Shown one piece after another: positions 878 to 62,055 of a stretch of 64,000 nt of DNA. The position numbers were made by a program, and so were the translations under genes. Numbering within the stretch: position 1 is the stretch's first letter; every line of letters begins with the position of its first letter. The notes beneath the pieces are model-generated. The model had not been told where the DNA came from and did no database searches. It saw nothing but the letters and a program-made list of their open reading frames with translations. Source of the stretch: Candidatus Woesearchaeota archaeon (GTDB lineage: Archaea > Nanobdellota > Nanobdellia > Woesearchaeales > UBA10216); contig JACPBY010000001.1 of assembly GCA_016180065.1 (NCBI GenBank), forward strand, positions 100,851 to 164,850, given 5' to 3'.

Positions 878-912
878 TAACTTATTTGCGTTTGCCATTT
901 GCTTCATTGCCC

Positions 913-1752: not shown

Positions 1753-1765
1753 TCTTTTTTTCCTC

Positions 1766-2305: not shown

Positions 2306-2318
2306 GCTATGCAAATGT

Positions 2319-2804: not shown

Positions 2805-2808
2805 TTTC

Positions 2809-11971: not shown

Positions 11972-11972
11972 C

Positions 11973-13040
11973 TCAGTAAAGCCTCTTGCAGGTGCTGGCA
12001 AGCTCCGAGGACGGGACAAGGCGGACAGTGGCAGGGAAAACTTTCAAGGTGCCTGTCTTGCCAAGCTCCACCTTCCAGTTTGTAAGGTCAACTTCATTTC
12101 CTCCATCAACAACCTTCCCAAACACAAGCCCGGGATTTTCACCTTCCCTGTAGCCCGGAACCGGCTTGCCATACCCTGTGTTGCAGCCTATGTCGGCAGC
12201 GTCTCCTCCTGTCACAGGGTTTTTGTCATAGCCGCCAAGATAGCAGTCAACGATGCCCGCATTTGGAGGCGCGGTGGAACCGGTTGAGTATTTCCCAAAA
12301 AAATACCTGTTTTGGGACTGGGTTGACAAGGCGAACACAACGCTGTAAGGCTGCGGCACTCTCTTTCCAGTCTTATCAGCATAAAACTTTATGGCCTTGC
12401 CATCAAACGCGCTTATGTATCTAGTAAAGTCCTGGGGCTTGTGGACTGAGTTTTCAAGGAAATATTCCATGTACGTTTTCTCATCCTTCGGAGGAATTGC
12501 TGTTGCGGCAGCATAGGAGTAAAGGTTCGTGAGCTCAACAGCATCGCCTTCATCAACAAAGTCCTGGCTGGGGATTATCTCAGAGCAGACGATGCAGGCT
12601 GTTCCATCCTTGGCATCAACTGACTGCTGCAGCTTTATCTTGCCCTCGCCAAACATGTACCAGCAGTCCTTCATGTTCTTCATGATGAGCTCCTTAAGCT
12701 GGTTCTCCCTCTCCCCAGTATCGGTGCTGAGCCGAATTTTGTCATCATACCTCTTTATGCTCTTCTTTGTTATTTCGCTGAAAATAGTCTTGCAATTAAA
12801 CTGGAAAGGGCTGTCCATGAATGTATAATCCATCACCCAGAAGTCCTTTGTGAACTGAAAGCTTGCGAGGGCAACGCTCAGCTTGCACCCTTCAATAAGG
12901 TCTTTTGTCTGGGCAGCAGCAATGTAAGGCTTGGTCATTGAAAAGACAAGGAAGAACACTGCCACAGCTGCTACTGCACTAACTACCTCTCCTTGGGCAA
13001 GCCCTTTCTTTTCCTTTTTTCCAACAGGGCTTCCTGGCAT
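11973..13040 (-). CDS. prepilin-like protein, paralog of 11003..11971
   Basis: N-terminus: MPGSPVGKKEKKGLAQGEVVSAVAAVAVFFLVF. It carries the motif DCWYMFGEGKIKLQ..CIVCSEI. Confidence 0.65.
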   Translation of the reverse strand: MPGSPVGKKEKKGLAQGEVVSAVAAVAVFFLVFSMTKPYIAAAQTKDLIEGCKLSVALASFQFTKDFWVMDYTFMDSPFQFNCKTIFSEITKKSIKRYDDKIRLSTDTGERENQLKELIMKNMKDCWYMFGEGKIKLQQSVDAKDGTACIVCSEIIPSQDFVDEGDAVELTNLYSYAAATAIPPKDEKTYMEYFLENSVHKPQDFTRYISAFDGKAIKFYADKTGKRVPQPYSVVFALSTQSQNRYFFGKYSTGSTAPPNAGIVDCYLGGYDKNPVTGGDAADIGCNTGYGKPVPGYREGENPGLVFGKVVDGGNEVDLTNWKVELGKTGTLKVFPATVRLVPSSELASTCKRLY

Positions 13041-13041
13041 G

Positions 13042-13188
13042 TCAGCAGATGCCTCCGCTCCACGTGCCGGTTTTGCACATTATGCTCCTCAGAACCATGA
13101 AAATGATGACAATCGCCCCAATGACAACGACGCTTCCAAGCACGGTCTCTGACAGGATAGCTGTGCCTCTTTTCTTACTGCACACCAT
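13042..13188 (-). CDS. mini prepilin-like protein (48 aa), first gene of the cluster
   Basis: Not in the track because it is shorter than 60 aa. My translation is MVCSKKRGTAILSETVLGSVVVIGAIVIIFMVLRSIMCKTGTWSGGIC. Its stop lies 1 nt before the next ATG at 13040. Confidence 0.45.
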   Translation of the reverse strand: MVCSKKRGTAILSETVLGSVVVIGAIVIIFMVLRSIMCKTGTWSGGIC

Positions 13189-13209
13189 ACAATCACCATT
13201 CGAAATTGC

Positions 13210-13217
13210 TTATATAA
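13210..13217 (-). promoter_or_regulatory. TATA-like box for the pilin-like gene cluster
   Basis: ttatataa lies about 25 nt upstream of the ATG at 13188, so the transcript would be leaderless or nearly so. Confidence 0.45.
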
Positions 13218-13238
13218 GGTTTTCGGAAAAGGAGGTAA

Positions 13239-13583
13239 TTACAGCTTTCTTATTCTTATGCGTCCGTCTTTAACCACTACCAGCTTGCCTTCAACATCAA
13301 GCTCCCGCATGGTTTTAGTTAGGATACCAAATCTCTCCTCAGGGTCAGTGCTGGCAGTTCTTAGAAGGATAAACCCCGGGGCTGGCTTCCTTCGCCTGAC
13401 AATCAGTTCGCCGAAGTCTTTATCATCAGAAATCAGGATTCTGCCTTCGCTTTCTGCTCTGGCAAGGACTGCCTCATCACTTGCAGCGGGCATAATATCT
13501 CCTGCAAATATAACATCATGTTTAGCGCCTGCTAGCATGTCAGCCAGCCTTTTACCTGTGCTTTCATCAACCAGAAGCCGCAT
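13239..13583 (-). CDS. PIN-like toxin (DUF5615-type)
   Basis: MRLLVDES...HDVIFAG...SDEAVLARAESEGRILISDDKDFGEL...PGFILLR matches the DUF5615 pattern. It overlaps the upstream DUF433 gene. Confidence 0.7.
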   Translation of the reverse strand: MRLLVDESTGKRLADMLAGAKHDVIFAGDIMPAASDEAVLARAESEGRILISDDKDFGELIVRRRKPAPGFILLRTASTDPEERFGILTKTMRELDVEGKLVVVKDGRIRIRKL

Positions 13584-13827
13584 AAGCTGCCTTTTTCTCC
13601 TCTATTTCAGGTATGATGTCCTCTCCCCTAACGAGGCTTGCAGAATACTCAACTGCTGCTCTCACATCATCCTTAGTCAGGTTTGGGTAGTCCTTGAGTA
13701 TTCCTTCAGTAGTCATACCATCAGCTATTCTTTGGAGGATTGCGTCTACAGGCACTCTAGTGCCTTTGATTACAGGCTTCCCAACCATTATTTTTGGGTC
13801 CACAATTATCCTTTTCATGAAGTCCAT
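13567..13827 (-). CDS. DUF433 family antitoxin-like protein
   Basis: IIVDPKIMVGKPVIKGTRVPVDAILQRIADGMTTEGILKDYPNLTKDDVRAAVEY is a typical DUF433 signature. Confidence 0.75.
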   Translation of the reverse strand: MDFMKRIIVDPKIMVGKPVIKGTRVPVDAILQRIADGMTTEGILKDYPNLTKDDVRAAVEYSASLVRGEDIIPEIEEKKAAYAASG

Positions 13828-13898
13828 ATGAATAATACCCTTATTAATGTGATAGCGGCTACCAAATTATATAATGTTTTTGGAAAAGTTTTTAACTT

Positions 13899-16337
13899 TT
13901 GCAGCTGATAAAGAAATTTTTGATGGCTGCTTCTGATGGCGAAGGCGGCAAAGGCGAGGAAAGCCTTGAGGCGCTTATAGAAAAGAGCTTAAGGATTAAA
14001 CCCCTTTTTGAAAAAACCCATCCTGCCGGGGCAGAGGCTGCCCCCAAAACTCTCATAGAGAGGCTGCTCCCGCTCTCAGCAGCTGCTGCAAATGCAGTGC
14101 TGTCATCCCCAGGCAACCCGGCATATGCGCCTGCTGCGGTCGGAGCACTGACATACATTCTTGCCAGCAAAACCGCCAGGTTAGCAAAGCTAAACAGCAA
14201 AATCAGCACAGCAACTTACGGGCTTGGCCCTTCATTTGCCAGCAATGTCTTATTCCAATTTAAAGGATTGGCTGCCATCGTTTCAGGCATGGTGTCTTTT
14301 GCAATCCCTTATTCCGCCAAAAGCTTCGGGGATGAAACAGGCAGTTCCCTGGACTGGTTTGCTGAGCTGGCAAAGTCCCTGCCAAGCTTTGCTCCTGAAA
14401 TAGCATACGGCACGCTCAGCGGCTTTGGCACATACGTTCTCCTGACAGGGCTCCAGCATGTTGCACATCCGCAGAGCCTACTTACTGCATGGCACATGCT
14501 GCGCAAAAATCCTGAAAAAATGGCTGGAATTCCCCATTCAAAAGAAAAGGAGATTGGGCTGCTGCTGCAGATGGGGGACGCCTTTCTTGACTCAAAAAAT
14601 TTTGCTGGCGCTGCTGGCGCGTATAAAGGACTTCTTCAGTCAGCAATGAGAACTGACGGCAAAACAGGAATCTCTGACTGGCTTGTAGGCAGAGCGAAGA
14701 ATGTGCAGGCTTATGGCACAACCATTCCCAATCCGCTGCAGCAGGCAATGCACGAATTTGCAGCCGGAAACCATGAAAGCGCTCATTCTCTGCTGGCATA
14801 TGCAATAAGAATTGAGCCTAACAACAGGGACCTGCACAGGATAAGAGCTTTGTTTTTTCAGGTGCTTGGAGAGAAGAGCGCAGCAGACCTTGAAATGCGC
14901 ATATTTGTTGAGCTGGCAAGGAGGGACGCTGAATCAATTTTTGAACTGGTCGGGGAATCCCGCAACAGGGTGCTCACTATAAAAGGCGGAAGAACCCGCG
15001 ACATATATGTGAAAGAAGGCCCTGCCAGTTCTTTTGATGATGAAGCGAGGAATATTTCAGAATTCTCCCGAGAGATTCCCGGAAGACTGCCATCAGTTGT
15101 AGGAATGTGTCCGGCTGATGCAAAAGGGAAAGCGGCTATGGCTGTTGAAAGCATGGGGAACGCAACCATGCTGCAAAAGGCAATCACAGGCAACCTGACG
15201 GCACAAGATGTGGAGTCAACAATTGATTTGCTGTTAGAAGTCTTAACAGCCGGGGAAAAACTAAGAAAGCAGGGAAAAATAAAGGTTGCAGAGCCAATCA
15301 GCCTGCCAACATACATTTATTCAAGCCAAACAGCCCTTAAAAGCCTTGGCAGAAATGCTGTGCAGGAAAACGTGCACGAAGAAAACGGCACAAAGCAAAC
15401 CCCGCTGTATTTCGCGCACAGGGTCAATGACCTTTTTGTCCTGGGCGTGCAGGAGCATAACGGGATAGAGTTTACGCAGGAATTCGCAGATAAAGTCATG
15501 AATGGGGCAGCAGTCCTCAATTATCTCCTGCTTGAGCATCCCCTGATTAAGCAGGGAACGCTCAACGGGGTGTACACGGACTTTACGCACCGGAACATAA
15601 TCTTTGACAGCCTGTCGGGAGCCTTGAAAGGGAAGATAGACTGGGAGCAGATAAAGGTGCTGCCTGTAATGTTTGAGCTTGTAAACATACTTGAATTCTA
15701 CCGCGTAAACTTCTCAGCCAGCCAAATAGAGTCCTTTCAAAAATATTTTGTCAACAGGTTTGAACATGCATCTGGAGCAAAAATCAGCATGAGCCAGTTT
15801 AGTTTCTTATACCACACAGCTGCGGCCATAAGGCACCTTGAGCTGATATCTTACAGAAGCAGGGATGCAGCGTTTAACCCGGAGAACGCCTCTGCGCAGG
15901 CTTACCATCACCTTATGGCAAGGATGCACCTCGTTGAGGTAATTGCAAAAGCACCAATAACCCAGAACCATCCTGCAAGGGCGGCGCTTGAGGAAATGCT
16001 TCAGCAATTGGATATGACACCAATTATGAAGGATGCAAGGCAACAAAAGGAACTTGAAAGCGAAGTCCGGCTTCACGCAACGAGAGCTGGCCCATCAATG
16101 AGATACCTTGCTCACGAAGCATCGCAGAAGGCATACTGGAAAGACTTTTTCAGCCCACCCCAAAACTTTCTACGCCGTCCACACTTAACCAACACTCCTT
16201 ACAGGAAAGCCAGTGTTGCCGAAAACCTGGCAAGCAATGCATCAGTTATTATTGGAGTCCCTGCAGCATTGGCGACAGCAGGAACCTTTGACACTGCACT
16301 GTATTTTGCCCTTCAAACAATAATGCCTTCATTGTGA
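13899..16337 (+). CDS. membrane-associated TPR-like / protein-kinase-like (APH/choline-kinase fold) protein, 812 aa
   Basis: The catalytic-loop-like motif YTDFTHRNIIF (DxxxxN) is followed by GKIDWEQ. Hydrophobic segments lie near the N- and C-termini. The track start is a TTG at 13899, and the first ATG is at 13923. Confidence 0.7.
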   Translation: MQLIKKFLMAASDGEGGKGEESLEALIEKSLRIKPLFEKTHPAGAEAAPKTLIERLLPLSAAAANAVLSSPGNPAYAPAAVGALTYILASKTARLAKLNSKISTATYGLGPSFASNVLFQFKGLAAIVSGMVSFAIPYSAKSFGDETGSSLDWFAELAKSLPSFAPEIAYGTLSGFGTYVLLTGLQHVAHPQSLLTAWHMLRKNPEKMAGIPHSKEKEIGLLLQMGDAFLDSKNFAGAAGAYKGLLQSAMRTDGKTGISDWLVGRAKNVQAYGTTIPNPLQQAMHEFAAGNHESAHSLLAYAIRIEPNNRDLHRIRALFFQVLGEKSAADLEMRIFVELARRDAESIFELVGESRNRVLTIKGGRTRDIYVKEGPASSFDDEARNISEFSREIPGRLPSVVGMCPADAKGKAAMAVESMGNATMLQKAITGNLTAQDVESTIDLLLEVLTAGEKLRKQGKIKVAEPISLPTYIYSSQTALKSLGRNAVQENVHEENGTKQTPLYFAHRVNDLFVLGVQEHNGIEFTQEFADKVMNGAAVLNYLLLEHPLIKQGTLNGVYTDFTHRNIIFDSLSGALKGKIDWEQIKVLPVMFELVNILEFYRVNFSASQIESFQKYFVNRFEHASGAKISMSQFSFLYHTAAAIRHLELISYRSRDAAFNPENASAQAYHHLMARMHLVEVIAKAPITQNHPARAALEEMLQQLDMTPIMKDARQQKELESEVRLHATRAGPSMRYLAHEASQKAYWKDFFSPPQNFLRRPHLTNTPYRKASVAENLASNASVIIGVPAALATAGTFDTALYFALQTIMPSL

Positions 16338-20153: not shown

Positions 20154-20198
20154 AAATATATAGCTGGGTTTGATAATTTGCAATTATGCGTGTAAAAT

Positions 20199-20361
20199 CT
20201 GATTTTCCACCAATCTCTGATTGGTGGTATCTGTTTGTGGAAAATCAGGCTCTGAGCAAACCGACCCGAGCGAAGCGAGCATGCAAATCGGCAGCAGCCG
20301 ATTGCACATTCCGCAATGCGGAATTGCGCCACCGGTCTTTGACCGGTGGTGGTCGGTTTGC
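20199..20361 (+). other. cluster of strong hairpins: a 12-bp stem-loop followed by a 106-nt four-helix element
   Basis: ctgattttccac (20199-20210) pairs with gtggaaaatcag (20237-20248). gcaaaccgacc (20256-20266) pairs with ggtcggtttgc (20351-20361) and encloses three hairpins. The strand is not determined. Confidence 0.4.
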
Positions 20362-22057
20362 GATTGACAAAGCGTGTAACAAAAATTTTTCTCCTGTTTC
20401 CCCCGCATCCTTAGCTGCAGCAGTTTTCCTGGCGCTTCTTTTTTTAGCAACCGCTTCACTGCCCGTTCTTGCAGACCAGGCAATATTCGACGGCACTGTG
20501 GTTTCAGGCCGTCAATACAACACCAGCACAGGCCAGGCGTTCACAGCAACATATGTGCAGTCAGAAGCCAAGCTGCTGGTTGAGTTCCCGAGCGAGGCGC
20601 TCGTAATAAAAAACCAGAGCTGCACCATGGGAAAAAGCCTGAAAGGATGCCTGAGCGAGATAAAGTTCAAAGGCTACAATTATTCCCTGCCTGACAAGGA
20701 AGTTTACGACGTCCGCCTGACTCTGAGCTTATTTGTGCCTGAGATTGAAATTGCAAAATACGTGGAGAAGCCAACGATTGATGTTGGCGAGGAAACCACG
20801 GTGTATGTCAACATAACAAACACAGGAAGCGCAGCAGCCACGGTCCATTTCACGGAGAACGTGTCTTCAGGCCTTAAAGCCATTGAGATGCCAGGCCAAC
20901 GCTGCCAGCTTTCCGCGGGCAATACCCTTGTGCTTACCACCGACTTGACTGTAAAAGAGCAGAGGCAGTGTAACTATCTTGTTTCAGCCCTCGAGCCGGG
21001 CACTTACTCCCTGAAATCCACAGCAGCATTCGCTGCGGTTACTCCAAGAGAAACGGCGGCATCTGCGGCAATAAGCGTAAATGCCCTGCCGATGCTCATG
21101 AATGCAACATACCTGCAAAACATTCCCCTTGGTGAAAAAGTAAACCTAACCTTCACGCTAAAATCCGGCGAAAAGATAGACGCACTCTCTTTCGCGGCAT
21201 TTATCCCGAACCCGCTCAAAATTACATCATTCGGTGGGATTGCAGAGCAGGAAAAACAGCCCGGCGGGTCAAAATTAAAATACGGCAACAGGTTCACAAG
21301 CCTGAACGGAAGCATTGACCTGCCATTCACATCAGAAGCAGTAAGCGTTGGAGAATTCTACATAAATGCCGATGCAAGCTGGCTGCTTGGAGAGCTGAAG
21401 CAAAAAGCAAGCCTTGCTTTTCCCGTAAACATAACACTAACAAAGCCTTACCTCAGGGCGGGCAGGTATGATAACCAAACAGGACTGTTAGATGTGGACA
21501 TCGTGAACCCGTCGCACCTTCCGCTCTACAATGTTTCCGTGGCCTTAAACAGCTTTGGAAACGCTACCGGAAAGCCAATCAATGTTGAAGTAATAAGCAG
21601 CCTGAGCCATGCAAGCTTTGAAGCAGCACTGGCAACAGCAGGAAACACATCTTACAATGGCTCAATACGCTACTACACGCCATACAGGCAGGAACTCACC
21701 GCAACCGCAACGCTGCCAATAAACGCCTCGCAGGCAATCCGGAAGGAAGAAGAGCCAGCAAAGCCAGCCCAGCCAACTGCCGAAGCACCTCACATAAACA
21801 CTCAGCCTTTACCGACCTCTTCAGAAAGCGAACCAGCAGCATCTGAACAGCAGAACATCTACGAGCAACCACAAAGAAAAAGCACAGCATCTTCCCAGAT
21901 AAAGCTGGCTGCCGTGATAGCAGGGGCAATAGTGCTCCTGATTATGGCTTTCGCGCTCATAAAGTCAAGGGGCAAAGGCGGCACCGGTCACGAAGGGGCA
22001 CAGGAAGAGCCAACAGGCGCTGAAAGCGAAACAGAAAACACTTATGGCCCAGCATGA
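20339..22057 (+). CDS. surface protein with repeated beta-sandwich (CARDB/DUF11-like) domains, an N-terminal signal peptide and a C-terminal TM anchor
   Basis: The signal-like stretch is SLAAAVFLALLFLATASLPVLADQ. A typical domain motif is VGEETTVYVNITNTGSAAATVHF. The C-terminal anchor is LAAVIAGAIVLLIMAFALIKSRGKGG. The track start at 20186 would translate through the hairpin cluster, so I use the in-frame TTG at 20339. The start remains uncertain. Confidence 0.7.
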   Translation: MTGGGRFAIDKACNKNFSPVSPASLAAAVFLALLFLATASLPVLADQAIFDGTVVSGRQYNTSTGQAFTATYVQSEAKLLVEFPSEALVIKNQSCTMGKSLKGCLSEIKFKGYNYSLPDKEVYDVRLTLSLFVPEIEIAKYVEKPTIDVGEETTVYVNITNTGSAAATVHFTENVSSGLKAIEMPGQRCQLSAGNTLVLTTDLTVKEQRQCNYLVSALEPGTYSLKSTAAFAAVTPRETAASAAISVNALPMLMNATYLQNIPLGEKVNLTFTLKSGEKIDALSFAAFIPNPLKITSFGGIAEQEKQPGGSKLKYGNRFTSLNGSIDLPFTSEAVSVGEFYINADASWLLGELKQKASLAFPVNITLTKPYLRAGRYDNQTGLLDVDIVNPSHLPLYNVSVALNSFGNATGKPINVEVISSLSHASFEAALATAGNTSYNGSIRYYTPYRQELTATATLPINASQAIRKEEEPAKPAQPTAEAPHINTQPLPTSSESEPAASEQQNIYEQPQRKSTASSQIKLAAVIAGAIVLLIMAFALIKSRGKGGTGHEGAQEEPTGAESETENTYGPA

Positions 22058-22146
22058 CCTTTTGTTTCGCTGCGGCTCAACAAAAGCTCAACCAAAATCA
22101 ACAAGAGCTTGACAAAAGAAGCCAGGGCATAGCAGACGAAACTCAC

Positions 22147-31791: not shown

Positions 31792-31819
31792 CAGGAACGC
31801 TGCAAAGCCAGCCAGTATT

Positions 31820-31965
31820 AAACCTTTTTGCTCGCTAAACCTTTTTTGCTGCGGCAAAAAAGCTTTACCAAAAGCTATACATCCTGTCATGGACAAGATT
31901 AGGCTTTCCGTCAACGCACAAGTCGGCAGTTGCCGGCTGTGCACAATCGGCGCAATGCCGATTCG
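31820..31965. repeat. copy of the hairpin-module family (A/T hairpin plus AATCGGC..GCCGATT hairpin)
   Basis: cttttttgc (31841-49) pairs with gcaaaaaag (31854-62). aatcggc (31945-51) pairs with gccgatt (31957-63). The 12-mer gcaaaaaagctt is identical, as its reverse complement, to 52594-52605. Confidence 0.5.
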
Positions 31966-32095
31966 GGCTTTTGCGAACATCAGTGAACAAAAGGGTTGTG
32001 CTATATTAGTATATAAAAGCATAATCTTTATATAGTGGTATTTGAGTTTTAGCACAGTTATTGGGGTTGGTTGGTGAGAGAAGGGGGTTGCATAG

Positions 32096-32518
32096 ATGGT
32101 AATACTTTTTGACCAGTTCCACATGCCGGATGACATCTTTGAGGTAGTCTTTGCCACAACCCAGCAGAAGATAGTTGCCAAGGTTCTCATAAGAACCATG
32201 AAGGAAAAGAACGGTGAGATGAACAAGACAGAGATGTCTTTCTTTGCAACAAAGCTTCACGAAGGCAATTTCGTGACCGAGATAGAAGAGCCGGGCTACG
32301 AGGGCAAAAAAGTAAAGCTTTCATACAACAAAAGGCAGTTTTATGACCGCATTCTGACTCCCATGAAAAGCATGGGCATGATTGACTACGACCTTTACAA
32401 GAAAACCTACCGGCTTTCTGATGCTTTCAACAAGGAGATGATCAAGGTAGGCATCATGTGGCTGCATGAGCTGAAAAGGCCTGTTTCCGGGTTCAAGATA
32501 AAGGAAGCAAAGGCGTAG
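32096..32518 (+). CDS. hypothetical protein (140 aa)
   Basis: Clean ORF with a purine-rich stretch (gagagaaggggg) upstream. I recognise no family. Confidence 0.5.
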   Translation: MVILFDQFHMPDDIFEVVFATTQQKIVAKVLIRTMKEKNGEMNKTEMSFFATKLHEGNFVTEIEEPGYEGKKVKLSYNKRQFYDRILTPMKSMGMIDYDLYKKTYRLSDAFNKEMIKVGIMWLHELKRPVSGFKIKEAKA

Positions 32519-50274: not shown

Positions 50275-51162
50275 ATGGCAATCAAAAGCGTCGGCTTTGC
50301 CGGCATTGGCACAATGGGCTCTGGCATGAGCCGCAACCTCGTTAAGGCGGGCTTCAGTGTCTTTGTCTACAACAGGACAAGGTCCAAGGCTGAAGCTGTT
50401 GTGAGCGCAACAGTTGTTGACACCCCGGCAGAACTGTGCAGGAGGGCTGAAGTTGTGCTGATGTGCGTTTCAAACGACAGCTCTTTGAGGGACATACTCT
50501 ACGGCAGCAGCGGCATGATGCCTGCCCTGACAGGAAAAAATATTCTCATAGACAGCAGCACAACATCTGTTGAATTAACTGCAGAAATTGCAAAGAAGTG
50601 CGCTGAGAAAGGCGCTGAGTTTCTGGACGCCCCTGTGACAGGGGGAATGAAAGGCGCGGCTGAAGGCACATTGCTATACATGATAGGCGGGAAGAAGAAA
50701 ACGTTTGAAAGCTGCCGCAATGTGCTTGAAGCAATGGGAAAACTGCTGGTTTACTGCGGCCCCAGCACTTACGGCCAGCGCATGAAGATAGCCCTCAACC
50801 TCACCCAGTCAATGATTCTTGAAAGCTGCCTTGAAGGCGTTGTGCTGGGATTGAAGGAAGGCCTGCCTCTTGGCGTGATAATGGAAACATTTGACAATTC
50901 CGGAGCCAAAAGCGGCGTTGCAACTGCCAAGCTGCCGGGCATAGTGCAGAGGGACTTTACGCCGACTTTCCTGCTTGAGCTGATGGACAAGGACCTTAAA
51001 CTTGCGGCATCTGAGATAAGCAAATTCAACCTAAAGCTGCCTGTTGCAGCGGAAACAATCAGGATACTCCAGGAATGCATGGACAAAGGCCTTGCCAAGG
51101 AAGACTGGACTGCCATAGCAAAGCTTCTTGAGCAAGAAAACAAGGCAGAGATCTCTAAATAA
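50275..51162 (+). CDS. NAD(P)-dependent beta-hydroxyacid dehydrogenase (3-hydroxyisobutyrate/6-phosphogluconate dehydrogenase-like)
   Basis: It begins MAIKSVGFAGIGTMGSGMSRNLVKAGFSVFVYNRT. I start at the ATG at 50275. Confidence 0.8.
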   Translation: MAIKSVGFAGIGTMGSGMSRNLVKAGFSVFVYNRTRSKAEAVVSATVVDTPAELCRRAEVVLMCVSNDSSLRDILYGSSGMMPALTGKNILIDSSTTSVELTAEIAKKCAEKGAEFLDAPVTGGMKGAAEGTLLYMIGGKKKTFESCRNVLEAMGKLLVYCGPSTYGQRMKIALNLTQSMILESCLEGVVLGLKEGLPLGVIMETFDNSGAKSGVATAKLPGIVQRDFTPTFLLELMDKDLKLAASEISKFNLKLPVAAETIRILQECMDKGLAKEDWTAIAKLLEQENKAEISK

Positions 51163-51173
51163 CTTTAAATATT
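51163..51173 (+). promoter_or_regulatory. TATA-like box upstream of tRNA-Pro
   Basis: ctttaaatatt is centred about 28 nt upstream of tRNA position 1 (51196). Confidence 0.45.
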
Positions 51174-51195
51174 CTCCACTGCTGCCGCTCCAGTG

Positions 51196-51381
51196 AGGGG
51201 CTGTAGTGCAACTTGGCCAACACACAGCGTTCGGGTGCAACCTTTTTGTTCGTTGCGACTCACAAAAACAAGCTCGAGCCAAGCTCGAGATGCACCCCGC
51301 CCAAAAGGCGGGTGTGGCTTGACCAAAAAGCGAAAAGGGCAGAAAAACGCTGTAGTCTGGGTTCGAATCCCAGCAGCCCCG
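51196..51381 (+). tRNA. tRNA-Pro(CGG) with a 112-nt intron after position 37 (51235-51346)
   Basis: Folded by hand. The acceptor GGGGCTG pairs with CAGCCCC. The D-arm is GTGC-AACTTGGCCA-ACAC. The anticodon stem CAGCG pairs with CGCTG, and the loop is TTCGGG..A. The T-arm is CTGGG-TTCGAAT-CCCAG and the discriminator is G. No CCA is encoded. Confidence 0.85.
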
Positions 51382-51388
51382 TTCTCAA

Positions 51389-52411
51389 TCACGGCACCAG
51401 CACAATCTTCCCAAAGGACTGCCTTGACAGCAGGCGTTCCTGGGCTTTTCTCGCGTCCTTAAGCCTGAAGGCAGAGTCCAGCACAGGCCTGAGCTTGTTG
51501 TCAGCAGCCAGCTTCGTCACTGTCATGAAATCCTTCATGGTCCCGGAAACAGAGCCAAGGATTGAGCGCTGCGCCATGAAAAGCTCCCTGATGTTAATTG
51601 TGGCTTCATTGCCAGAAGTAACGCCGCAGGTAACAAGCCTGCCGTTCCTGGCAAGGCACTTGACGCTTTTTGCAAAAGTGGCAGCCCCAACAGGATCAAT
51701 AACCACGTCAACGCCCTTATTCTTCGTTGCTGCCAATACCTCATCAATCCAATCCTCTTCCGAGTAATTTATGACAACATCAGCACCTATTCTCTGAGCC
51801 TTCCGGAGCTTCTCCTCGCTCGAGGAAGTGGCAATGACCTTTGCTCCAAGAAGCTCTGCAATCTGGATTGAAGCTACACCGACGCCAGAGCCAGCACCTA
51901 AAACAAGGACCGTCTCGTTCGGCTGGGCCTTTGCACGGTCAACAAGCATGTGGTAAGCTGTTGTAAACGTCAAAGGGAGTGCCGCAGCCTCTTCAAACTT
52001 AAGGTTTTCCGGCATCCTCATGAGGTTCTTTATCGGAACAGTGACATATTCTGCGTAGGTGCCGTCAACCTGGGCTCCTAAAGTCCTGTAAGTGGCGCAG
52101 AGATTGTGGCTGCCCTCAATGCAGAACCTGCAGTGAAAGCAGGCAACCGTAGGGTATATGATTACCTTTCTTCCCACAAAGGAAGCATCACCAGCATTAA
52201 CATCCTCAACAACACCAGCAGCATCAGCCCCCGGAATGTGGGGCAGGCTTGGCTTGTAATAATTTCCCTTCTCAACCCAGATGTCAATGCGGTTGACAGA
52301 AGCAGCCTTTACCCTCACAAGAGCCTCCCCGAAAGCGGGAACGGGCTTGGAAACATCCTCATAGCAGAGCACTTCAGGGCCGCCGAACTCATGAAACCTT
52401 ACAGCCTTCAT
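51389..52411 (-). CDS. zinc-type alcohol dehydrogenase / quinone oxidoreductase (MDR superfamily)
   Basis: It contains MKAVRFHEFGGPEVLCYEDV and GAGSGVGVASIQIAELLGAKVIATS. The track ORF extends to 52522 over a hairpin module, so I use the ATG at 52411. Confidence 0.85.
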   Translation of the reverse strand: MKAVRFHEFGGPEVLCYEDVSKPVPAFGEALVRVKAASVNRIDIWVEKGNYYKPSLPHIPGADAAGVVEDVNAGDASFVGRKVIIYPTVACFHCRFCIEGSHNLCATYRTLGAQVDGTYAEYVTVPIKNLMRMPENLKFEEAAALPLTFTTAYHMLVDRAKAQPNETVLVLGAGSGVGVASIQIAELLGAKVIATSSSEEKLRKAQRIGADVVINYSEEDWIDEVLAATKNKGVDVVIDPVGAATFAKSVKCLARNGRLVTCGVTSGNEATINIRELFMAQRSILGSVSGTMKDFMTVTKLAADNKLRPVLDSAFRLKDARKAQERLLSRQSFGKIVLVP

Positions 52412-52431
52412 GGTTTCCCTGGCGGCAGCTT

Positions 52432-52481
52432 CAAATCGGGATGCGCCCGATTGCACATTCGGCCCCTCGCCGAATTGTGCC
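52432..52481. repeat. two-hairpin module, homolog of 20284-20330
   Basis: The sequence is caaatcggg-atgcg-cccgattg followed by cacattcggc-ccctc-gccgaattgtgc. The long identical blocks shared with 20284-20330 are interrupted only by compensatory stem swaps and differing loops. Confidence 0.55.
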
Positions 52482-52582
52482 TGCTGTTCCGGCCTGCCCT
52501 GCCCAAGAAGTTTCTCTTCCATGGCAAAAGGTAATGCAGGTTTGTTTTTATATTTTAGCTAACGGAGAAGTTTGATATTTTC

Positions 52583-52626
52583 GGCTTTTGACCAAGCTTT
52601 TTTGCGCGCTCACCAAAAAGGTTGAA
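52583..52626. repeat. A/T-rich hairpin module abutting the tRNA-Leu 3' end; may also serve as its oligo-T terminator
   Basis: ggcttttgaccaagcttttttgcgcgctcaccaaaaaggttgaa is near-identical, as its reverse complement, to 31838-31875. Confidence 0.5.
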
Positions 52627-52808
52627 TGCGGGAGACGTGATTCGAACACGTGAACCCACTAAGGGACAAGCTTTTTCTCAGCCGTTTTCGCGTTTTTGGA
52701 TTGTGTTTCCGGAGAGGAAACACTCATCGGCCGCTGCCGATGTTGAACCTTTTTCGCAAAAAGGGTCACCTGAAGCTTGCGCGTTTGACCAGGCTTCGCT
52801 ACCCCCGC
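52627..52808 (-). tRNA. tRNA-Leu(CAG) with a 96-nt intron after position 37 (52673-52768)
   Basis: Folded by hand on the minus strand. The acceptor GCGGGGG pairs with CTCCCGC (one G-U pair). The D-loop has A14, G18G19 and A21. The anticodon stem CAAGC pairs with GCTTG, and the loop is TTCAGG..A. The long variable arm is TCCCTTAGTGGGTTC. The T-arm is ACGTG-TTCGAAT-CACGT and the discriminator is A. Confidence 0.85.
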
Positions 52809-52827
52809 AATAAGGGAGCTTTACGCT

Positions 52828-52920
52828 CCCTTATCAACCCTTATTACGGATTGACAAAGCAAGCAGAAGAGCCCTTATCAACCCTACGGAACGATACGAG
52901 CTCGCTGCCCTTATCAAGCC
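52828..52920. repeat. three 13-bp direct repeats CCCTTATCAA(C/G)CC upstream of tRNA-Leu
   Basis: The copies are at 52828-40, 52872-84 and 52908-20. The first overlaps the hairpin aataagggag/ctcccttat (52809-34). Confidence 0.6.
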
Positions 52921-53028
52921 TGCGAGATGAGGTTTATACTTAAATTTAACTATCAATTGGTGCGGTGCGGCAAACAAGGCCTTTTTTTTTGGCAAAAAAT
53001 ATAAGCTCAGGCAAGAAGGATTAGGCTA

Positions 53029-57330: not shown

Positions 57331-60300
57331 TTAATGCGGAATCTTTGGCAACTTGAGCGGAGGCAGCTTCCTGTGCGTGAAATGCATGATTTCAACAGCT
57401 GCCAGAACCAGCGCAGTAAGCACAACCACAGTCCACACCACCTTTGCCGCAAACCCAAGCCCGCCTTTTTCAGCTTCAGATGGCCTTGCTTCTTCAGGCT
57501 GGGGCTGTTGCAGCTGCTGCACAACCTCAACCTGCTGTTCCTGCCCTTTGGCCGCTTCCTCACCGGATGGCAGCGCCTTCACGGCAAGCTTGGCTTTTGC
57601 CTTCTCAGCAACTACTGAAAAGACTGAAAAGCCCGGGGTTGTTGCCTCATAGCTTATGAAATCCGCGTCTTCTGAAATTTGTTTAGTCGGAAGCCTTACC
57701 CACTCATTGGAAACAAGCCTGTTCAGCGAGGTTGTGGCAGGGTCAAGGCTGTTGTTGCCAAACCAGCCTGTTGGAACTCTAAACTTAATCGTAGCGGTTG
57801 TTACAGCTTCCAGCTTGGCCTTTGTTATTGACAGGTACTTGTAAACGTTGCCAGCGCCTTTTGATACAGGAGGGGAAATGCTTGAAGCGAGTGTTGTTTC
57901 CCTCACGCTGACCGCGGGGCTGGATGAGGCTGTTCCAGCGACTGCGACTATCTCATAAACGGCAAGGTCGGCGAACTTCTTGTATGAGAAGGTTCCCGCA
58001 TCGCCTGCGTTCAGGTCTTTCTGGAGCAGGAAGTTCTCTGAAGCAAGCGCAGCCCCGCCTCCGCCTCCCCCTCCTCCGCCACCTCCGCCTCCACTGCTGC
58101 TGCTTGAAGCGCTGCTGCCTGAGCTGCTCCCGTAAGTCTTCGTGCCCTGCACGCCATAGTAGGAGAAGCCAAGGCCTGCGCCTATAGCCATGGTGCAGTT
58201 GGTGACAGACGCGCCGAAGGTGCAGCTTGCGTTGCTGGTGACATCAAAGCAGTTTGACAGGTTATCATCGCTGCACTTCCAAAGCTTGGTGCCGTTGTCA
58301 GGTATTGTTATGGTTATGTACTTAACTCCGAGCTTTTGAATGATTGTGTTCCAGCTTGTTGTGTTTATGCCGACAAACTTGTTTGTTGAGTTTGAAGAGT
58401 AAAGCGTGGTTATGTTTATGGTTGCGGCAGCGAAGACTGACACGTTTTTCAGGGTGATGTTGTAACCGTTGTTCGGGTCCTTGATGGTTATGTCAATATT
58501 CTGGGCGTTGGAGGCGTTGACCTGCTTGCCGTAAGTCATGTTATCGCCAGAAACTCCCAGCTGCGGAATGTCAATCTGCAGCCCGGAAGAAGGGACCGGC
58601 TTGAAGACATAAGACTTGTAGCTAGTATCTGTCGTGAAGTTCGTGCACCCGCTCAACAAGCAGTTCCCACACAAGTCGCACAGCTTGTACTTGTAATAAT
58701 ATGTGCGGTTGCTGCCAAGGGTGGCATTAACGCTGTACTTGTCAATCAATGCTTCATGCCACGACTTAAACTCGTTCCCGGTAATTGAGTCAGTCAACCC
58801 AAAGTCCTTGATAGTTGAGTTAAGCGTTGAGCACTTGGTGTCATTGCCATAGAAAACCACTGTGCCGTTGCTTGGCTCGTCAGAGTCAAAAGAGATTGAC
58901 GCCCCTTCAGGGAACGTTGCAGCCTCAAGCCACTTCAGGCCCGGCGGGCTTTTGTCATTGGGGTCGCAGGTCATTCCAAAGCCGCAGCCAGCGAACGGGT
59001 CATACTTACAGCTGTTGTCATTACAGTCAACCATGCCATTGTTGTCATTATCCTTGCCGTCGGTGCACAGCGGGCCACCTTCAAAAGGCACAAAGCCAAA
59101 CTTCTTGAACAGGGTGCAGTCCGGGTCGTTGTCAGCCGTCAAGCCGTCGCCATCAGCATCCTGCCCGGTTGCCATGCAGTTTTCAAACTTCTTGTCAATG
59201 CTTCCGGGCGCATAATAGTAAGGCCCGCCTATGTCAACAGGGTTGGTTTCATTTGCACCAGCGCCAGCGTCATTCAAAATTGTCAGGTTATTGCTGCTGT
59301 TGGCAGTCATCATGAAAATCCTGATAACACCTTTCGGGCTGCCAAAATCAGCCTTCTTGATGACCATTATCTGCACCCCTCCCGGCAGGCCCCCGCCGCT
59401 TCCTCCTTCACCAGGGCCGCCGGGCCCTCCCTGCCCTTCCTGGCCTCCTGGACCGCCTATGGTCATCTTGCACATGTCTTTCATCACAGCCAATTGGGCT
59501 GAGAACGGCACCCAGCTGCCCGAAACGCACCTGAAGCCAACCTTGAATTCGCCGCTTGTAGTGTTCTCGGTGTAGAAAAACTTGTAGTCAAAGCCGTACT
59601 CCCTGAACTGGGCGCCCAGAGGCAGAGTGCCATTAACAGCACAGCCTGTGCTTGCATTGTTGTCAGAATCAATGAAGCGGTAAAACTTTGCAGTAAGGTT
59701 CCTTGTTATTGCCTTGTAAGCTGAGACCTTGTTGCAGCCTGCGAAATTTGAAAGGTTCTTGACTGCCATGCCAATGTCAATCTTGTCCTGCGCTCCAGGG
59801 CTTTCATGGACACCCACATCAGTGATGTCAGTCCAGTTCTGGCCCGATGTGTTGTCATCCTGCGGGTCAAACCCTATCAGCTCAGGAGGGGAGTCAACCA
59901 GCATCCCGCCTGCAAGGTTCTTCTCAAATACGGGGTTGCACCAGCCGGTTGCTGCATTGTAATAGCAGACAGCGGTTGCTCCCAACGGGCCTATTCCTGT
60001 CTGGGCTGCGCAGCCGGCAGGATTGTTATCGTTTTGCATGCATGTTGAAGGGCCAATTGCGCCAAGCCCTGCACCGCTGCCTCCTGCGCCTGAACCCATG
60101 CCGTAGCCGCAGAACGGGTCTGACTGGCAGTCGTTAACATCAGCGCAGTCCGAGAGGCTGTCGCCATCCTCATCTCCAGGCAGGAAACAAATCTCCTGGA
60201 CAGTGTTGTTCAAATGGCAGAATGAGGCAAATGAGCTTGTAGTATCCCAGCTGCAGTTTGCAGCGCTCGCAGCGCAGATGTTCTGGCTCTGGCAGGCAGA

Positions 60301-61869
60301 GCACGTCTTTGTGCAGTCCTTCTTATTGGCGAGAAGAAGCTTCTCGCAGGAGCCATCCTCAGAGGCGTTGAAAGTCCCATCGCCGTTTGAGTCAGAGCTG
60401 AAGGAATCGGAAATCCAGGAACAGTTTGCATTGCTAGTCCGGCAGGTGTCGTTTTTGAAGCACCCAATGCAATTTGCGCTGCAGTCAGTAAACCCAAACT
60501 TTATGTAGCTTTCCGGCTCGCACCAGCCCTGCCCGTTCATTGCGTTTGTGTCAGGAATCCACTTACAGAAGCCCAAAGCCGAGTTCTTGCACTGCTGCGC
60601 AGCTGTTTCGTTTGTAGCCCAGGGGCTGCCGTCTGACTGCTTTTCACACGCCCAGCAGGCATCATTGCAGCTTTCCTTGCTGAAATCGCCAAAAGACGGC
60701 TCGCACCACGAATCAGATGCTGTTTGGGTGTTGCTGTACTGGTCAGTGTAGGTGTACTTTTCTGTTTTCCAGGTGCCTCCTGTGGCTGTGCAGGAAGATT
60801 CTGTCTTGATGTCAAAGAAATCCCCACCGCCTCCGGAGCTGCCGAATATGCTGTTAAGGCTGAACTCGCACTTGCTCTTGGCTGCGTTCCAGCTGCACGG
60901 CATGAAATAAGTCCCGCTTGCCACTGTGCAGTTCTGCTGGTTTGCAGCAGCATCGCAGAATGTAAAAGGGGAAACAGGCAGGTTTGCAGAGGTTTTTGTA
61001 ACATTCCCTACGCAAGTGATGTTTGAGGACACCCAAGTGCACAACGGCGAGGTATGGGGCTGGTTGTTGCAAATGGTCTGGTTGACAAAGTTCGGGCACA
61101 CTATGCCTGCAGCATAATCAAAGCCTTCCCTGGAATCGCAGAGGCTCCCAACATCGCTCCACTGGCAAACAGTCACGTTGCCACAGGCGGCCCTGTTGCC
61201 GTCAAAAATCGGGCAGTCCGCTGTTTTGTTCATTGCACCTGTGCCTCCACCGCCGCCAGCCTTTCCTTCCTGGCAACTCTTCGTAAGCTCATCCCAGTGG
61301 CAGGCAGCGCCTGAGTCCACAGCACCCCAGCAGGCAACAGAGTTCTGGTATTGGAAACAGCCCGTGTTTGGAGGCTCGCCCAAAGCCGGACTGCCATTGC
61401 TCTGGAACTTCCAGATGGCTGTTGCGCTGCTGCCTGGCACAACATTGACGAGAACTATCAGCGCATATGTGTTGTTGCCCGTCTTCACGGCAAAGGCATC
61501 ACCAGCACCAAAAACAGAGGCTCCAACATGCTCATAAATAAGCCCCACTCCACCGTAGAACGTGTCAGAGCCATTCGGCACCTTATAAGTGGTAAGGTTG
61601 TTCATGGGCCCCATATTCCTGATTTTGCCAGGGCTCGCATTAAGGAAGCCAAGGCTGGTGCTTGTCATAAACGCGTTAACAGCCACTCCAGACCTCTTGT
61701 CCCACTTGACATGGCCTGAAGAGTTGCTTACCTCGCCGCTTGTAAGGTTGATGTAAGTAGTGTCATTAAGGACAGCTGTGCCGCTCGTAACCACAGCTGC
61801 AACAGGGAAAGAAGATGCCAAAACGCCAAAAAGGACAACGACAGAAATGAACGCAAAAGACTGACGCAT
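57331..61869 (-). CDS. very large Cys-rich, sequon-dense surface (S-layer-like) protein with a PGF-pre-PGF-like domain and a C-terminal TM anchor
   Basis: The signal peptide is MRQSFAFISVVVLFGVLASSFPVAA (ATG at 61869). It has many N-x-S/T sequons, repeated C-x(n)-C-x-W-x(n)-C units, Asp-rich Ca-binding-like motifs, a poly-Gly tract and YEATTPGFSVFSVV. The C-terminus is GLGFAAKVVWTVVVLTALVLAAV. Confidence 0.8.
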   Translation of the reverse strand: MRQSFAFISVVVLFGVLASSFPVAAVVTSGTAVLNDTTYINLTSGEVSNSSGHVKWDKRSGVAVNAFMTSTSLGFLNASPGKIRNMGPMNNLTTYKVPNGSDTFYGGVGLIYEHVGASVFGAGDAFAVKTGNNTYALIVLVNVVPGSSATAIWKFQSNGSPALGEPPNTGCFQYQNSVACWGAVDSGAACHWDELTKSCQEGKAGGGGGTGAMNKTADCPIFDGNRAACGNVTVCQWSDVGSLCDSREGFDYAAGIVCPNFVNQTICNNQPHTSPLCTWVSSNITCVGNVTKTSANLPVSPFTFCDAAANQQNCTVASGTYFMPCSWNAAKSKCEFSLNSIFGSSGGGGDFFDIKTESSCTATGGTWKTEKYTYTDQYSNTQTASDSWCEPSFGDFSKESCNDACWACEKQSDGSPWATNETAAQQCKNSALGFCKWIPDTNAMNGQGWCEPESYIKFGFTDCSANCIGCFKNDTCRTSNANCSWISDSFSSDSNGDGTFNASEDGSCEKLLLANKKDCTKTCSACQSQNICAASAANCSWDTTSSFASFCHLNNTVQEICFLPGDEDGDSLSDCADVNDCQSDPFCGYGMGSGAGGSGAGLGAIGPSTCMQNDNNPAGCAAQTGIGPLGATAVCYYNAATGWCNPVFEKNLAGGMLVDSPPELIGFDPQDDNTSGQNWTDITDVGVHESPGAQDKIDIGMAVKNLSNFAGCNKVSAYKAITRNLTAKFYRFIDSDNNASTGCAVNGTLPLGAQFREYGFDYKFFYTENTTSGEFKVGFRCVSGSWVPFSAQLAVMKDMCKMTIGGPGGQEGQGGPGGPGEGGSGGGLPGGVQIMVIKKADFGSPKGVIRIFMMTANSSNNLTILNDAGAGANETNPVDIGGPYYYAPGSIDKKFENCMATGQDADGDGLTADNDPDCTLFKKFGFVPFEGGPLCTDGKDNDNNGMVDCNDNSCKYDPFAGCGFGMTCDPNDKSPPGLKWLEAATFPEGASISFDSDEPSNGTVVFYGNDTKCSTLNSTIKDFGLTDSITGNEFKSWHEALIDKYSVNATLGSNRTYYYKYKLCDLCGNCLLSGCTNFTTDTSYKSYVFKPVPSSGLQIDIPQLGVSGDNMTYGKQVNASNAQNIDITIKDPNNGYNITLKNVSVFAAATINITTLYSSNSTNKFVGINTTSWNTIIQKLGVKYITITIPDNGTKLWKCSDDNLSNCFDVTSNASCTFGASVTNCTMAIGAGLGFSYYGVQGTKTYGSSSGSSASSSSSGGGGGGGGGGGGGAALASENFLLQKDLNAGDAGTFSYKKFADLAVYEIVAVAGTASSSPAVSVRETTLASSISPPVSKGAGNVYKYLSITKAKLEAVTTATIKFRVPTGWFGNNSLDPATTSLNRLVSNEWVRLPTKQISEDADFISYEATTPGFSVFSVVAEKAKAKLAVKALPSGEEAAKGQEQQVEVVQQLQQPQPEEARPSEAEKGGLGFAAKVVWTVVVLTALVLAAVEIMHFTHRKLPPLKLPKIPH

Positions 61870-62055
61870 GTCCAACCTATACGCACCTCTTCTTTTCTTT
61901 CTGTTGCTTTCTGAAAGCACTGGTATAAATACATTTCTGTATTTATGCACACGTTTGGCGGGATTGGTTTGTTGCAATTCATCACAACAATCTTTAAATA
62001 TGACCTCATATTGTGTCTTATGACATCATACTTTGAAGGTTTTGGAGGTGTTGGG

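Follow-up and report, generated by a model that had tools for sequence, protein, structure and literature searches.

A modular family of palindromic hairpin elements in intergenic DNA and tRNA introns of a Woesearchaeota genome

A family of small palindromic modules was characterised in a 64,000-nucleotide stretch of a Candidatus Woesearchaeota archaeon genome (GCA_016180065.1, contig JACPBY010000001.1, positions 100,851 to 164,850; hereafter the window) and in related DNA. The copies belong to one another by alignment, are conserved in structure, are present or absent at orthologous sites, lie nested in one another, and are one and the same element whether as tRNA intron, tRNA trailer or free-standing copy. 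They are best explained, at a probability of roughly 0.55, as lineage-specific selfish palindromic DNA, mobile or recombining, that colonises non-coding DNA including introns, and that is of the kind represented by repetitive extragenic palindromes (REPs), REP doublets forming hairpins (REPINs), bacterial interspersed mosaic elements (BIMEs) and MITEs (miniature transposable elements with inverted repeats). The modules would have spread at the level of DNA. An initial annotation of the window had proposed one modular hairpin family that includes a tRNA intron; the copies do align and their stems are kept, but at least three module classes have to be distinguished (a T-run scaffold, an AATCGG-type doublet and a TCTCC-loop hairpin). 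The evidence, formerly limited to short motifs, now comprises a covariance model, orthologue comparison and full-length homology. L-numbers below denote related or comparison loci; L138–L140 are 56 kb of syntenic Woesearchaeota loci, and L144 is GCA_016180085.1.

The doublet unit reads CAAATCGGN-loop-NCCGATTG directly followed by CACATTCCGC-loop-GCGGAATTGTG (~46 nt), the second hairpin (H2) being approximately the reverse complement of the first (H1), as in REPINs. Each hairpin measures ~22–25 nt and is built of 4–5 bp, a single bulged base (an A in the 5′ arm of H1, a T in the 3′ arm of H2), a further 5–6 bp and a loop of 3–5 nt. The ends of the unit, CAAATCGG and CCGAATTGTG, are terminal inverted repeats; TG usually precedes CAAATCGG, and the unit terminates with AATTGTG. 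A covariance model of the doublet (R1) was built from 24 copies and returned exactly three sites in the window (E 9e-15 to 6e-11), namely canonical H1-H2 doublets at 20283–20330 (locus 1, plus strand; 59.5 bits, E 9.8e-15), at 31915–31966 within a free-standing composite (locus 2, minus strand; 45.8 bits, E 6.1e-11) and at 52431–52481 (locus 3, plus strand; 59.6 bits, E 9.1e-15). Every doublet unit also scored on the opposite strand (26–41 bits; 36, 33 and 13 bits for the three window sites), which reflects the symmetry of an inverted doublet. Over 203 kb of window and related loci R1 found 26 distinct units, mostly intergenic, with 2 of the 26 in open reading frames (ORFs). No units were found by R1 over L138–L140, and over 851 kb of loci from a loose pattern scan the sole strong match was the Woesearchaeota genome L109, with nothing comparable otherwise. 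The pattern ATCGGN-N3-6-NCCGAT was observed 4 times in the window vs 0.10 expected, a count reached in 0 of 100 shuffles.

In the doublet alignment 90.7% of cells were paired, vs 18–39% with slid partners, and 9 of the 17 stem pairs change on both sides, the counts of double changes being inflated since the alignment holds both strand readings. Several stem variants are directly visible (AATCGGC/GCCGATT, AATCGGG/CCCGATT, AATCGGA/TCCGATT, AATCGT/ACGATT and AAGTCGTG/CACGACT). Judged by this alignment, the doublet stems are maintained through compensatory changes. All strings quoted in the initial annotation were present where it had placed them, and the 12-mer it reported as shared, AAGCTTTTTTGC, has exactly two occurrences, at both of the places named. 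The ATCGG unit that it saw at 20283, 31966 (minus strand) and 52431 is real and turned out larger than claimed, consisting of two adjacent hairpins (~46 nt), of which the ATCGG hairpin is the first half.

The scaffold module (~45 nt) consists of (TG)ACC, a T-run/A-run hairpin (H0) and the tail TCAAYCCAAAAAC, and carries oligo-T tracts on both strands; its T-runs probably act as terminators. A regex scan for the specific module gave 3 matches in the window and 8 in 83 kb of related DNA, with 0 in 843 kb of unrelated DNA and 0 in L138–L140. T-run hairpins in general occurred at chance frequency in the window (31 observed vs 19–35 in Markov shuffles). A minimal free-standing module lies at 22054–22108 (plus strand; TGACC, T/A-run hairpin, GCTCAACCAAAATCAACAAGAGC), where the TGA is the stop codon of a DUF11-domain gene, and is colinear from the first to the last base with the minimal Leu intron of L125 and the Ala intron of L076. 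Another was recovered by the regex scan at 31834–31876 (plus strand, opposite to the locus 2 doublet; CTAAACC, T/A-run hairpin, TTTACCAAAAGC) and is identical in 39 of 39 positions to the tRNA-Leu 3′ trailer of L146. The scaffold was found directly after genes, after tRNAs and before tRNAs; it follows the AglB gene of L128 directly, as at the DUF11-domain gene. In tRNA-Leu (L125, L146) and tRNA-Ala (L076) the anticodon-loop intron consists entirely of the scaffold, which in the window is also the core of the introns of tRNA-Leu and tRNA-Pro. The T/A-run hairpins at 52583–52623 and 31838–31876, which the initial annotation had matched, belong to this separate terminator-like module, which at locus 2 stands on the opposite strand.

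The third hairpin type carries a TCTCC loop and reads GTGTTTCC-TCTCC-GGAAACAC in the window Leu intron and ATGTCACC-TCTCC-GGTGACAT in L125, where this type (H4) recurs as ATGTCACCtctccGGTGACAT. In reverse complement it is the host hairpin in which doublet units are nested in L119, L120, L125 and L128.

The gene for tRNA-Leu(CAG) occupies 52627–52808 on the minus strand, with the 5′ exon at 52769–52808, a 96-nt intron at 52673–52768 (position 37/38) and the 3′ exon at 52627–52672. It was detected by ARAGORN in intron mode only; default ARAGORN and Rfam at gathering threshold reported no tRNA or RNA family in the window, and an Rfam E-value search of 51100–53000 gave a sub-threshold tRNA match only. 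In-silico removal of the intron left a clean 86-nt tRNA-Leu(cag) cloverleaf, and the exons align exon to exon with the intron-less orthologue of L145 and also with those of L125 and L146. Read in tRNA sense (minus strand), the intron runs from a T-run hairpin through an ATCGGC hairpin and a second hairpin to a tail. Its 5′ scaffold (52743–52768) is composed of TGACC, the H0 hairpin CCCTTTTTgcgAAAAAGG and TTCAAC, a start also seen in L125 and L146 (Leu introns) and in L076 (Ala intron), and its 3′ scaffold (52673–52702) reads (AAT)CCAAAAACGCGAAAACGGCTGAGAAAA, whose CUGA can base-pair with the UCAG in the anticodon loop. A hairpin cassette of ~42 nt (52701–52742) separates TTCAAC from CCAAAAAC in the scaffold; the alignment of tRNA-Leu orthologues shows it to be absent from the orthologous introns. 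It holds the ATCGGC hairpin H1′ (ATCGGCagcgGCCGAT, 52726–52741), which is the fourth match of the ATCGG pattern, and the TCTCC-loop hairpin H4 (GTGTTTCCtctccGGAAACAC, 52703–52723). Against R1 the ATCGGC hairpin of the intron matched the first half of the doublet only (10.2 bits, E 0.39); its assignment to the family is based on the statistics of the exact palindrome and on what related genomes show in comparison. The initial annotation had held that intron and intergenic elements share their modules in the same relative order, for which it had paired the wrong strands: by homology, the order of the intron is that of the locus 2 minus strand, read from 31999.

In the minimum free energy (MFE) fold of pre-tRNA-Leu a 4-bp UCAG/CUGA helix adjoins the extended anticodon stem, with a 3′ bulge of 5 nt and, on the 5′ side, a 1×1 loop or an alternative 3-nt bulge. 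A bulge-helix-bulge (BHB) at the intron junctions would be a relaxed motif at best, the canonical form not being demonstrated by folding. A reading of the intron and the free copies as box C/D RNAs was rejected: on inspection only CGAUGA inside the H1′ stem and one CUGA were present, with no C′/D′ arrangement and no Rfam match. The 3′ trailer of tRNA-Leu (52583–52626, minus strand) was identified in the regex family scan as a terminator-like scaffold module (TTCAACC, T/A-run hairpin, TTGGTCAAAAGCC), which also follows tRNA-Leu in L125 and L146 and tRNA-Ala in L076.

Several further observations were made around this tRNA. Its 5′ leader (52815–52935, minus strand) contains three direct repeats of TTGATAAGGG, the last of which forms the hairpin AAGGGAGCgtaaaGCTCCCTT abutting the 5′ end of the tRNA; a TATA-like TTAAATTTAAGTATAAA lies ~125 nt upstream, implying a long leader. 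At the position matching this leader, L145 and L146 carry an inverted scaffold module. In these two loci tRNA-Leu(CAG) (intron-less in L145, 9796–9882; intron-bearing in L146) is inverted relative to the dehydrogenase gene when compared with the window, L125 and L144, and the tRNA gene has, on this comparison, flipped between flanking palindromic modules. In L144 (9780–10000) the tRNA-Leu(CAG) adjoining the dehydrogenase gene has a 45-nt D-loop intron as well as a scaffold anticodon-loop intron and breaks off beyond the variable arm, T-arm and 3′ acceptor both being missing ahead of the dehydrogenase start codon; this gene is a pseudogene or else represents a split tRNA's 5′ part.

The zinc-dehydrogenase gene is flanked by tRNA-Leu and tRNA-Pro, both intron-bearing. 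The gene for tRNA-Pro(CGG) (51197–51381, plus strand), mislabelled tRNA-Phe(aaa) by ARAGORN in intron mode, contains a 111-nt intron at position 37/38 (51236–51346; TGCAACC, H0, two hairpins, TTGACCAAAAAGCGAAAAGGGCAGAAAA), and the spliced tRNA-Pro(cgg) folds as a 74-nt tRNA. The two hairpins of this intron match R1 over the full length, if weakly (7.9 bits), and the intron is identical to the tRNA-Pro trailer of L144 in 77 of 93 positions. At locus 2 a composite of intron-like build (31890–31999, minus strand; CAACCC, H0, H1, H2, GTTGACGGAAAGCC) stands free of tRNA exons. It is identical to the L125 tRNA-Pro intron in 81 of 105 positions and to the L144 tRNA-Pro 3′ trailer in 74 of 97 (z ~24 in both cases), an end-to-end homology with the tRNA-Pro intron and trailer of relatives that bears out the earlier suggestion of an intron-related element. 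No tRNA or tRNA half was found at 31890–31999 or 22054–22108 by ARAGORN in intron mode or Rfam; the flanks are promoter DNA conserved in relatives in the first case and a protein stop codon in the second. A further free composite lies between divergent genes in L072. Intron copies of the composite are present in L125 and the window, a 3′ trailer copy in L144 and free copies in the window and L072, at 76–83% identity (z 11–28), and by these alignments intron, trailer and free copy are the same element.

Additional, non-canonical introns were noticed in tRNA genes of other loci, in the D-loop of tRNA-Pro in L125 (2046–2077) and L146 and in the T-loop of L144 tRNA-Pro (11150–11210) and L126 tRNA-Lys(TTT) (2609–2700), several of them made of similar T/A-run hairpins. 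In L125 (1981–2037) two copies of the 12-nt start of tRNA-Pro (GGGGCTGTAGTG), separated by 44 nt, lie upstream of the gene; an insertion may have left them behind as a duplication, or they may mark another intron-like insert.

All three window doublets lie in extra sequence that is absent from the orthologous spacers of relatives. At locus 1 the gap upstream of the DUF11-domain gene measures 185 nt in the window vs 31–47 nt in L138 and L140. The doublet is here part of a hairpin array (20257–20360, plus strand), which in its MFE fold has a closing stem CAAACCGACC/GGTCGGTTTG around H1, H2 and a third hairpin CACCGGTCtttGACCGGTG, and which forms the 5′ leader of a DUF11-domain secreted protein with a probable TTG start at 20339. 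At locus 2 the spacer measures 304 nt vs 169–175 nt in four orthologous loci, with flanks conserved on both sides; an inserted or replaced block of ~178 nt of module DNA (31822–31999, block ends ACAACCCTTTTGTTC and GAGCAAAAAGGTTTA) stands in place of ~42 nt between the divergent promoters of a DHH (RecJ-like) gene and a 140-aa gene. At locus 3 the doublet lies upstream of the zinc-dehydrogenase gene, 20 nt from its true start, which the domain offset places at 52411 (ATG, minus strand). The spacer between tRNA and dehydrogenase is 215 nt long in the window vs 100 nt in L125, where no doublet is visible and the spacer is otherwise not alignable with the window; L125 carries a doublet array upstream of tRNA-Leu instead.

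The introns themselves form graded series. The tRNA-Leu(CAG) intron is absent in L145 and measures 49 nt in L125, 64 nt in L146 and 96 nt in the window. For tRNA-Pro(CGG), orthologues have intron lengths of 0, 51, 59, 107 and 111 nt: the intron is absent in L145, consists of scaffold only in L146 and L144, and of scaffold plus doublet in L125 (107 nt) and the window (111 nt). With three intergenic copies and the Leu cassette present or absent between orthologous loci, the earlier proposal of a small mobile or intron-related element is supported.

A coding interpretation of the hairpin regions, as 5′ extensions of ORFs at all three loci, was discarded, since domain offsets and orthologue N-termini put the true starts downstream. 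ORFs run through the stop-free palindromes at 52412–52522, 31792–32226 and 20186–20338, over-extending the starts, and the dehydrogenase is on record with both 377 aa and 340 aa, many close homologues having 355–371 aa. Also within the inserted 5′ leader at locus 1, a further long hairpin (20203–20247, plus strand; TGATTTTCCACCAATCtctGATTGGTGG...GGAAAATCA) was matched to no family.

The arrangement of copies in related genomes points in the direction of selfish palindromic DNA. In L129 a complete doublet sits within the loop of another doublet's first hairpin, and in-frame units of 45 and 48 nt were found inside ORFs of L109 and L132, the hosts being a charged low-complexity protein and a PPECxGL-repeat protein. 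Genes beside the units are unrelated housekeeping genes (SecY, AglB, VIT1, S17e), including the L30-SecY segment of the ribosomal protein operon. As a mechanism, two tiers are envisaged. The first would be the ~45-nt scaffold, which alone would also make the clade's minimal anticodon-loop introns, and the second the cargo hairpins, chiefly the 46-nt inverted doublet. Cargo would land at single-stranded or loop-like spots, such as between scaffold hairpin and tail, within the loop of another hairpin, in a spacer or, occasionally, in-frame inside an ORF. The agent may be an HUH/Y1-like single-strand DNA enzyme that recognises hairpins and works in trans; alternatively, dispersed scaffold copies may undergo gene conversion with one another. 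The window Leu intron would then be a scaffold intron plus an acquired two-hairpin cassette, the cassette presumably being tolerated because the intron is spliced out.

A number of points weigh against this explanation. Pfam scans of ~50 window ORFs gave no transposase of any kind, and no Y1 (HUH) transposase was present in these or in 10 neighbour ORFs of related loci; classes of REP-associated Y1 transposases have been reported from bacteria only (PMC6006769). Target-site duplications, a test proposed at the outset, were looked for in 20 units and none was consistent, and no GTAG/CGTC tag was found at the hairpin foot of doublet units. The composite is as conserved between genomes (76–83%) as coding DNA, with adjacent spacers unalignable, which could reflect RNA function rather than mobility; genes of the syntenic L125 have 73–77% nucleotide identity to the window. 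With respect to the local transcript, about 11 of 14 units are sense-oriented, a count that comes from reading the gene context of a small sample and is no rigorous test. A T5 tract within a tRNA intron is odd for a supposed transcription-terminating module. The related DNA covered overall amounts to ~250 kb from roughly ten related genomes.

A 7-nt repeat, TCCAGTG, flanks units only in one repeated progenitor context. Flanks of TGTCCAGTG were considered as independent duplications and dismissed, the whole block, TATA-like box included, being itself a repeated context. This block was observed in L127 (1600–1800) in the order TATA-like box, TAGCCGGGCA, TGTCCAGTG, doublet, TGTCCAGTG, and recurs in L072, L122 and L124. 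Downstream of it L127 contains an IS630-like helix-turn-helix transposase fragment (757–1275, minus strand), with no link to the units demonstrated, and the reverse complement of the block's 9-mer (CACTGGACA) lies ~110 nt downstream of the block, an arrangement that suggests another MITE-like element.

A more far-reaching proposal concerns the origin of the introns, and is put forward only tentatively. The canonical tRNA introns of this clade may have originated by insertion of a mobile, palindromic and terminator-like DNA module (TGACC, T/A-run hairpin, TCAACCAAAAAC) into the anticodon loop and may then have grown by taking up REPIN-like hairpin cassettes, the same elements also living free in intergenic regions, at the ends of genes and in the trailers of tRNAs. 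The gain of tRNA introns in archaea is an open question, which sister genomes with intron-less, minimal and enlarged tRNA-Leu and tRNA-Pro make testable. If the introns were indeed born from the module, they would offer a first direct view of the source element and of the successive steps of archaeal tRNA intron gain, and the vehicle of 'intron transposition' would be identified.

It is considered unlikely that the family is primarily a functional RNA, in which the composite H0-H1-H2-tail would be a small structured RNA that tRNA processing sets free (the splicing endonuclease from an intron, RNase Z from a trailer) or that has a promoter of its own, and single doublets would be cis-acting, protein-binding or stabilising hairpins of untranslated regions. 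Conservation speaks in its favour, as stems are kept by compensatory changes, the bulged base is conserved as well, window and L125 have tRNA-Pro introns of the same two-hairpin architecture despite differing stem sequences, and the composite is attached to tRNA-Pro as intron or trailer in three genomes at the 76–83% identity given above. TATA-like boxes occur ~20–35 nt upstream of free copies (32008–32018; L072, L122, L124, L127), most units have the sense direction, and the pre-tRNAs fold more stably than shuffled sequences do (z -3.0 and -3.9). Such a role is, however, hard to reconcile with in-frame copies in ORFs, with copies nested in one another or absent at orthologous sites of close relatives, with both orientations relative to the neighbour gene (e.g. 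window locus 3, L123 and L128) and with copies between divergent promoters, where there is no known transcript. Every unit scores as its own reverse complement, as is typical of DNA palindromes, and neither an Rfam family nor C/D boxes were found.

Equally improbable is a mobile tRNA intron as the starting point, from which free copies, trailers and gene-end copies would derive as mis-inserted or decayed introns, with spread via excised, possibly circularised intron RNA or via recombination guided by BHB ends. The Leu, Ala and Pro introns of different genomes share TGACC, H0 and TCAACCAAAAAC ... GAGAAAA, orthologous tRNAs range from intron-less to intron-bearing, and the extra D-loop and T-loop introns are made of similar T/A-run hairpins; the free copy at 22054–22108, moreover, is colinear with a whole minimal intron. 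There is also a precedent in Thermoproteales, where similar introns in different tRNAs imply 'intron transposition' by an unknown mechanism (Fujishima et al. 2010, reviewed in PMC4090602). Against it, free copies have neither exon-like flanks nor an evident BHB, doublets also occur far from any tRNA and in ORFs, no reverse transcriptase was seen, and the scaffold shows a preference for sense-oriented sites immediately behind stop codons or tRNA 3′ ends, which resembles a terminator role, not decay. As to a preference for tRNA-adjacent sites, raised in the initial annotation, a tRNA was present within 300 nt at ~4 of 18 loci, a share not clearly above expectation for intergenic DNA.

Ordinary similarity between generic oligo-T terminator hairpins and chance GC-rich palindromes is refuted: T-run hairpins as a class are indeed at shuffle frequency, and the Leu-intron ATCGGC hairpin alone is inconspicuous under the doublet model, but the specific palindrome and module lie far above chance, with doublet E-values down to 1e-14, the 39/39 identity of module 31834–31876 to another genome's tRNA-Leu trailer, full-length homology at z ~24 and no module match in the 843 kb of control DNA, and further copies in related Woesearchaeota do align, with compensated stems.

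Among known systems, selfish palindromic DNA as proposed here most resembles REPINs, which are inverted REP doublets forming hairpins with compensatory changes (PMC3116915). Shared with REPINs and BIMEs are short imperfect palindromes with a bulged base, an inverted doublet foldable as two small hairpins or one long one, compensatory stem changes, mosaic clusters of several hairpin types, and a lineage-specific, mostly extragenic distribution without target-site duplication (PMC3116915, PMC2817692). These elements are bacterial and mobilised by REP-associated tyrosine transposases (RAYTs), whereas the present host is archaeal and no RAYT or Y1 transposase or GTAG/CGTC tag was seen; the hairpins abut here instead of being spaced by 71–110 bp as in REPINs, and copies reside in tRNA introns and ORFs. 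In being small, non-coding, multicopy and insertion-polymorphic, with inverted ends and the ability to carry terminator-like hairpins, the modules are also akin to MITEs such as the haloarchaeal IS200/IS605-derived palindrome-associated elements and the terminator-like SPRITE (PMC11602168, PMC10969869). They differ in that no consistent target-site duplication and no parent insertion sequence with matching ends were found, and described MITEs have neither the modular cargo-in-scaffold organisation nor a role in tRNA introns. Rickettsia palindromic elements likewise place palindromes in-frame in protein genes as well as in intergenic DNA and RNA genes (PMC10969869), but are bacterial and ~100–150 bp long, compared with 45–48 nt for the 2 of 26 units in ORFs here.

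From the Thermoproteales case the present one differs in that the intron family also occurs outside tRNA genes (free-standing, at gene ends, in tRNA trailers), in that intron-less, minimal and enlarged orthologues are found side by side, and in its DPANN host. The box C/D sRNA in the tRNA-Trp intron of Euryarchaeota is comparable as a structured RNA family that is both free-standing and intronic, and Nop56/58 and fibrillarin genes are present in the window, but properly arranged C, D, C′ and D′ boxes are missing here and the hairpin architecture is unrelated. The literature searched contained no description of an inverted-doublet palindrome family in archaea, of a scaffold-plus-cargo organisation, or of a single element that is found as an intron, a trailer, a module at gene ends and a free copy, alongside orthologues in the intron-less, minimal and enlarged states; REPIN/BIME-like inverted doublets were tied to bacterial RAYT transposases only. 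The claim that nothing of the kind had been described for archaea nevertheless needs softening, given the intron transposition of Thermoproteales (PMC4090602) and a MITE census that puts a Woesearchaea genome, at 105 MITEs per Mb, with the archaea of highest MITE density (PMC11602168). For such repeats in a DPANN archaeon with no visible transposase, either a mobilising enzyme that has escaped recognition or spread through gene conversion can be considered. In practical terms, palindromes without stop codons cause gene callers to over-extend ORFs, as for the dehydrogenase (377 vs 340 aa), and palindromes break metagenome assemblies.

A metagenome scan with the specific doublet pattern yielded 16 contigs, all from groundwater sets, and 7 of the 16 matches lay within 300 nt of a contig end, as repeats would give. 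The loose genome pattern scan (17 specified bases) returned mostly chance bacterial matches, with genuine units in three Woesearchaeota genomes (L072, L076 and L109); the remaining loci, being unrelated DNA, were used as negative control. Two scans of viral contigs gave nothing, plus one chance match within a coding region, and no sign of a viral origin.

The window itself is ordinary archaeal chromosome, with a gene content, taken from the Pfam scans, that includes Nop56/58, fibrillarin, CysRS, one class-I and one class-II aminoacyl-tRNA synthetase, an XPD-type helicase, RFC, PCNA, ATP-dependent DNA ligase, SurE, HerA, RNase J and class V FBPase. Two very large ORFs (4480–10752, minus strand, 2090 aa; 57331–61977, minus strand, 1548 aa) had no Pfam match, nor had the ORFs 913–3465 and 11003–13908. 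For the DHH (RecJ-like) protein and the zinc dehydrogenase, the nearest named relatives were groundwater 'Candidatus Woesearchaeota archaeon' proteins at 70–84% identity.

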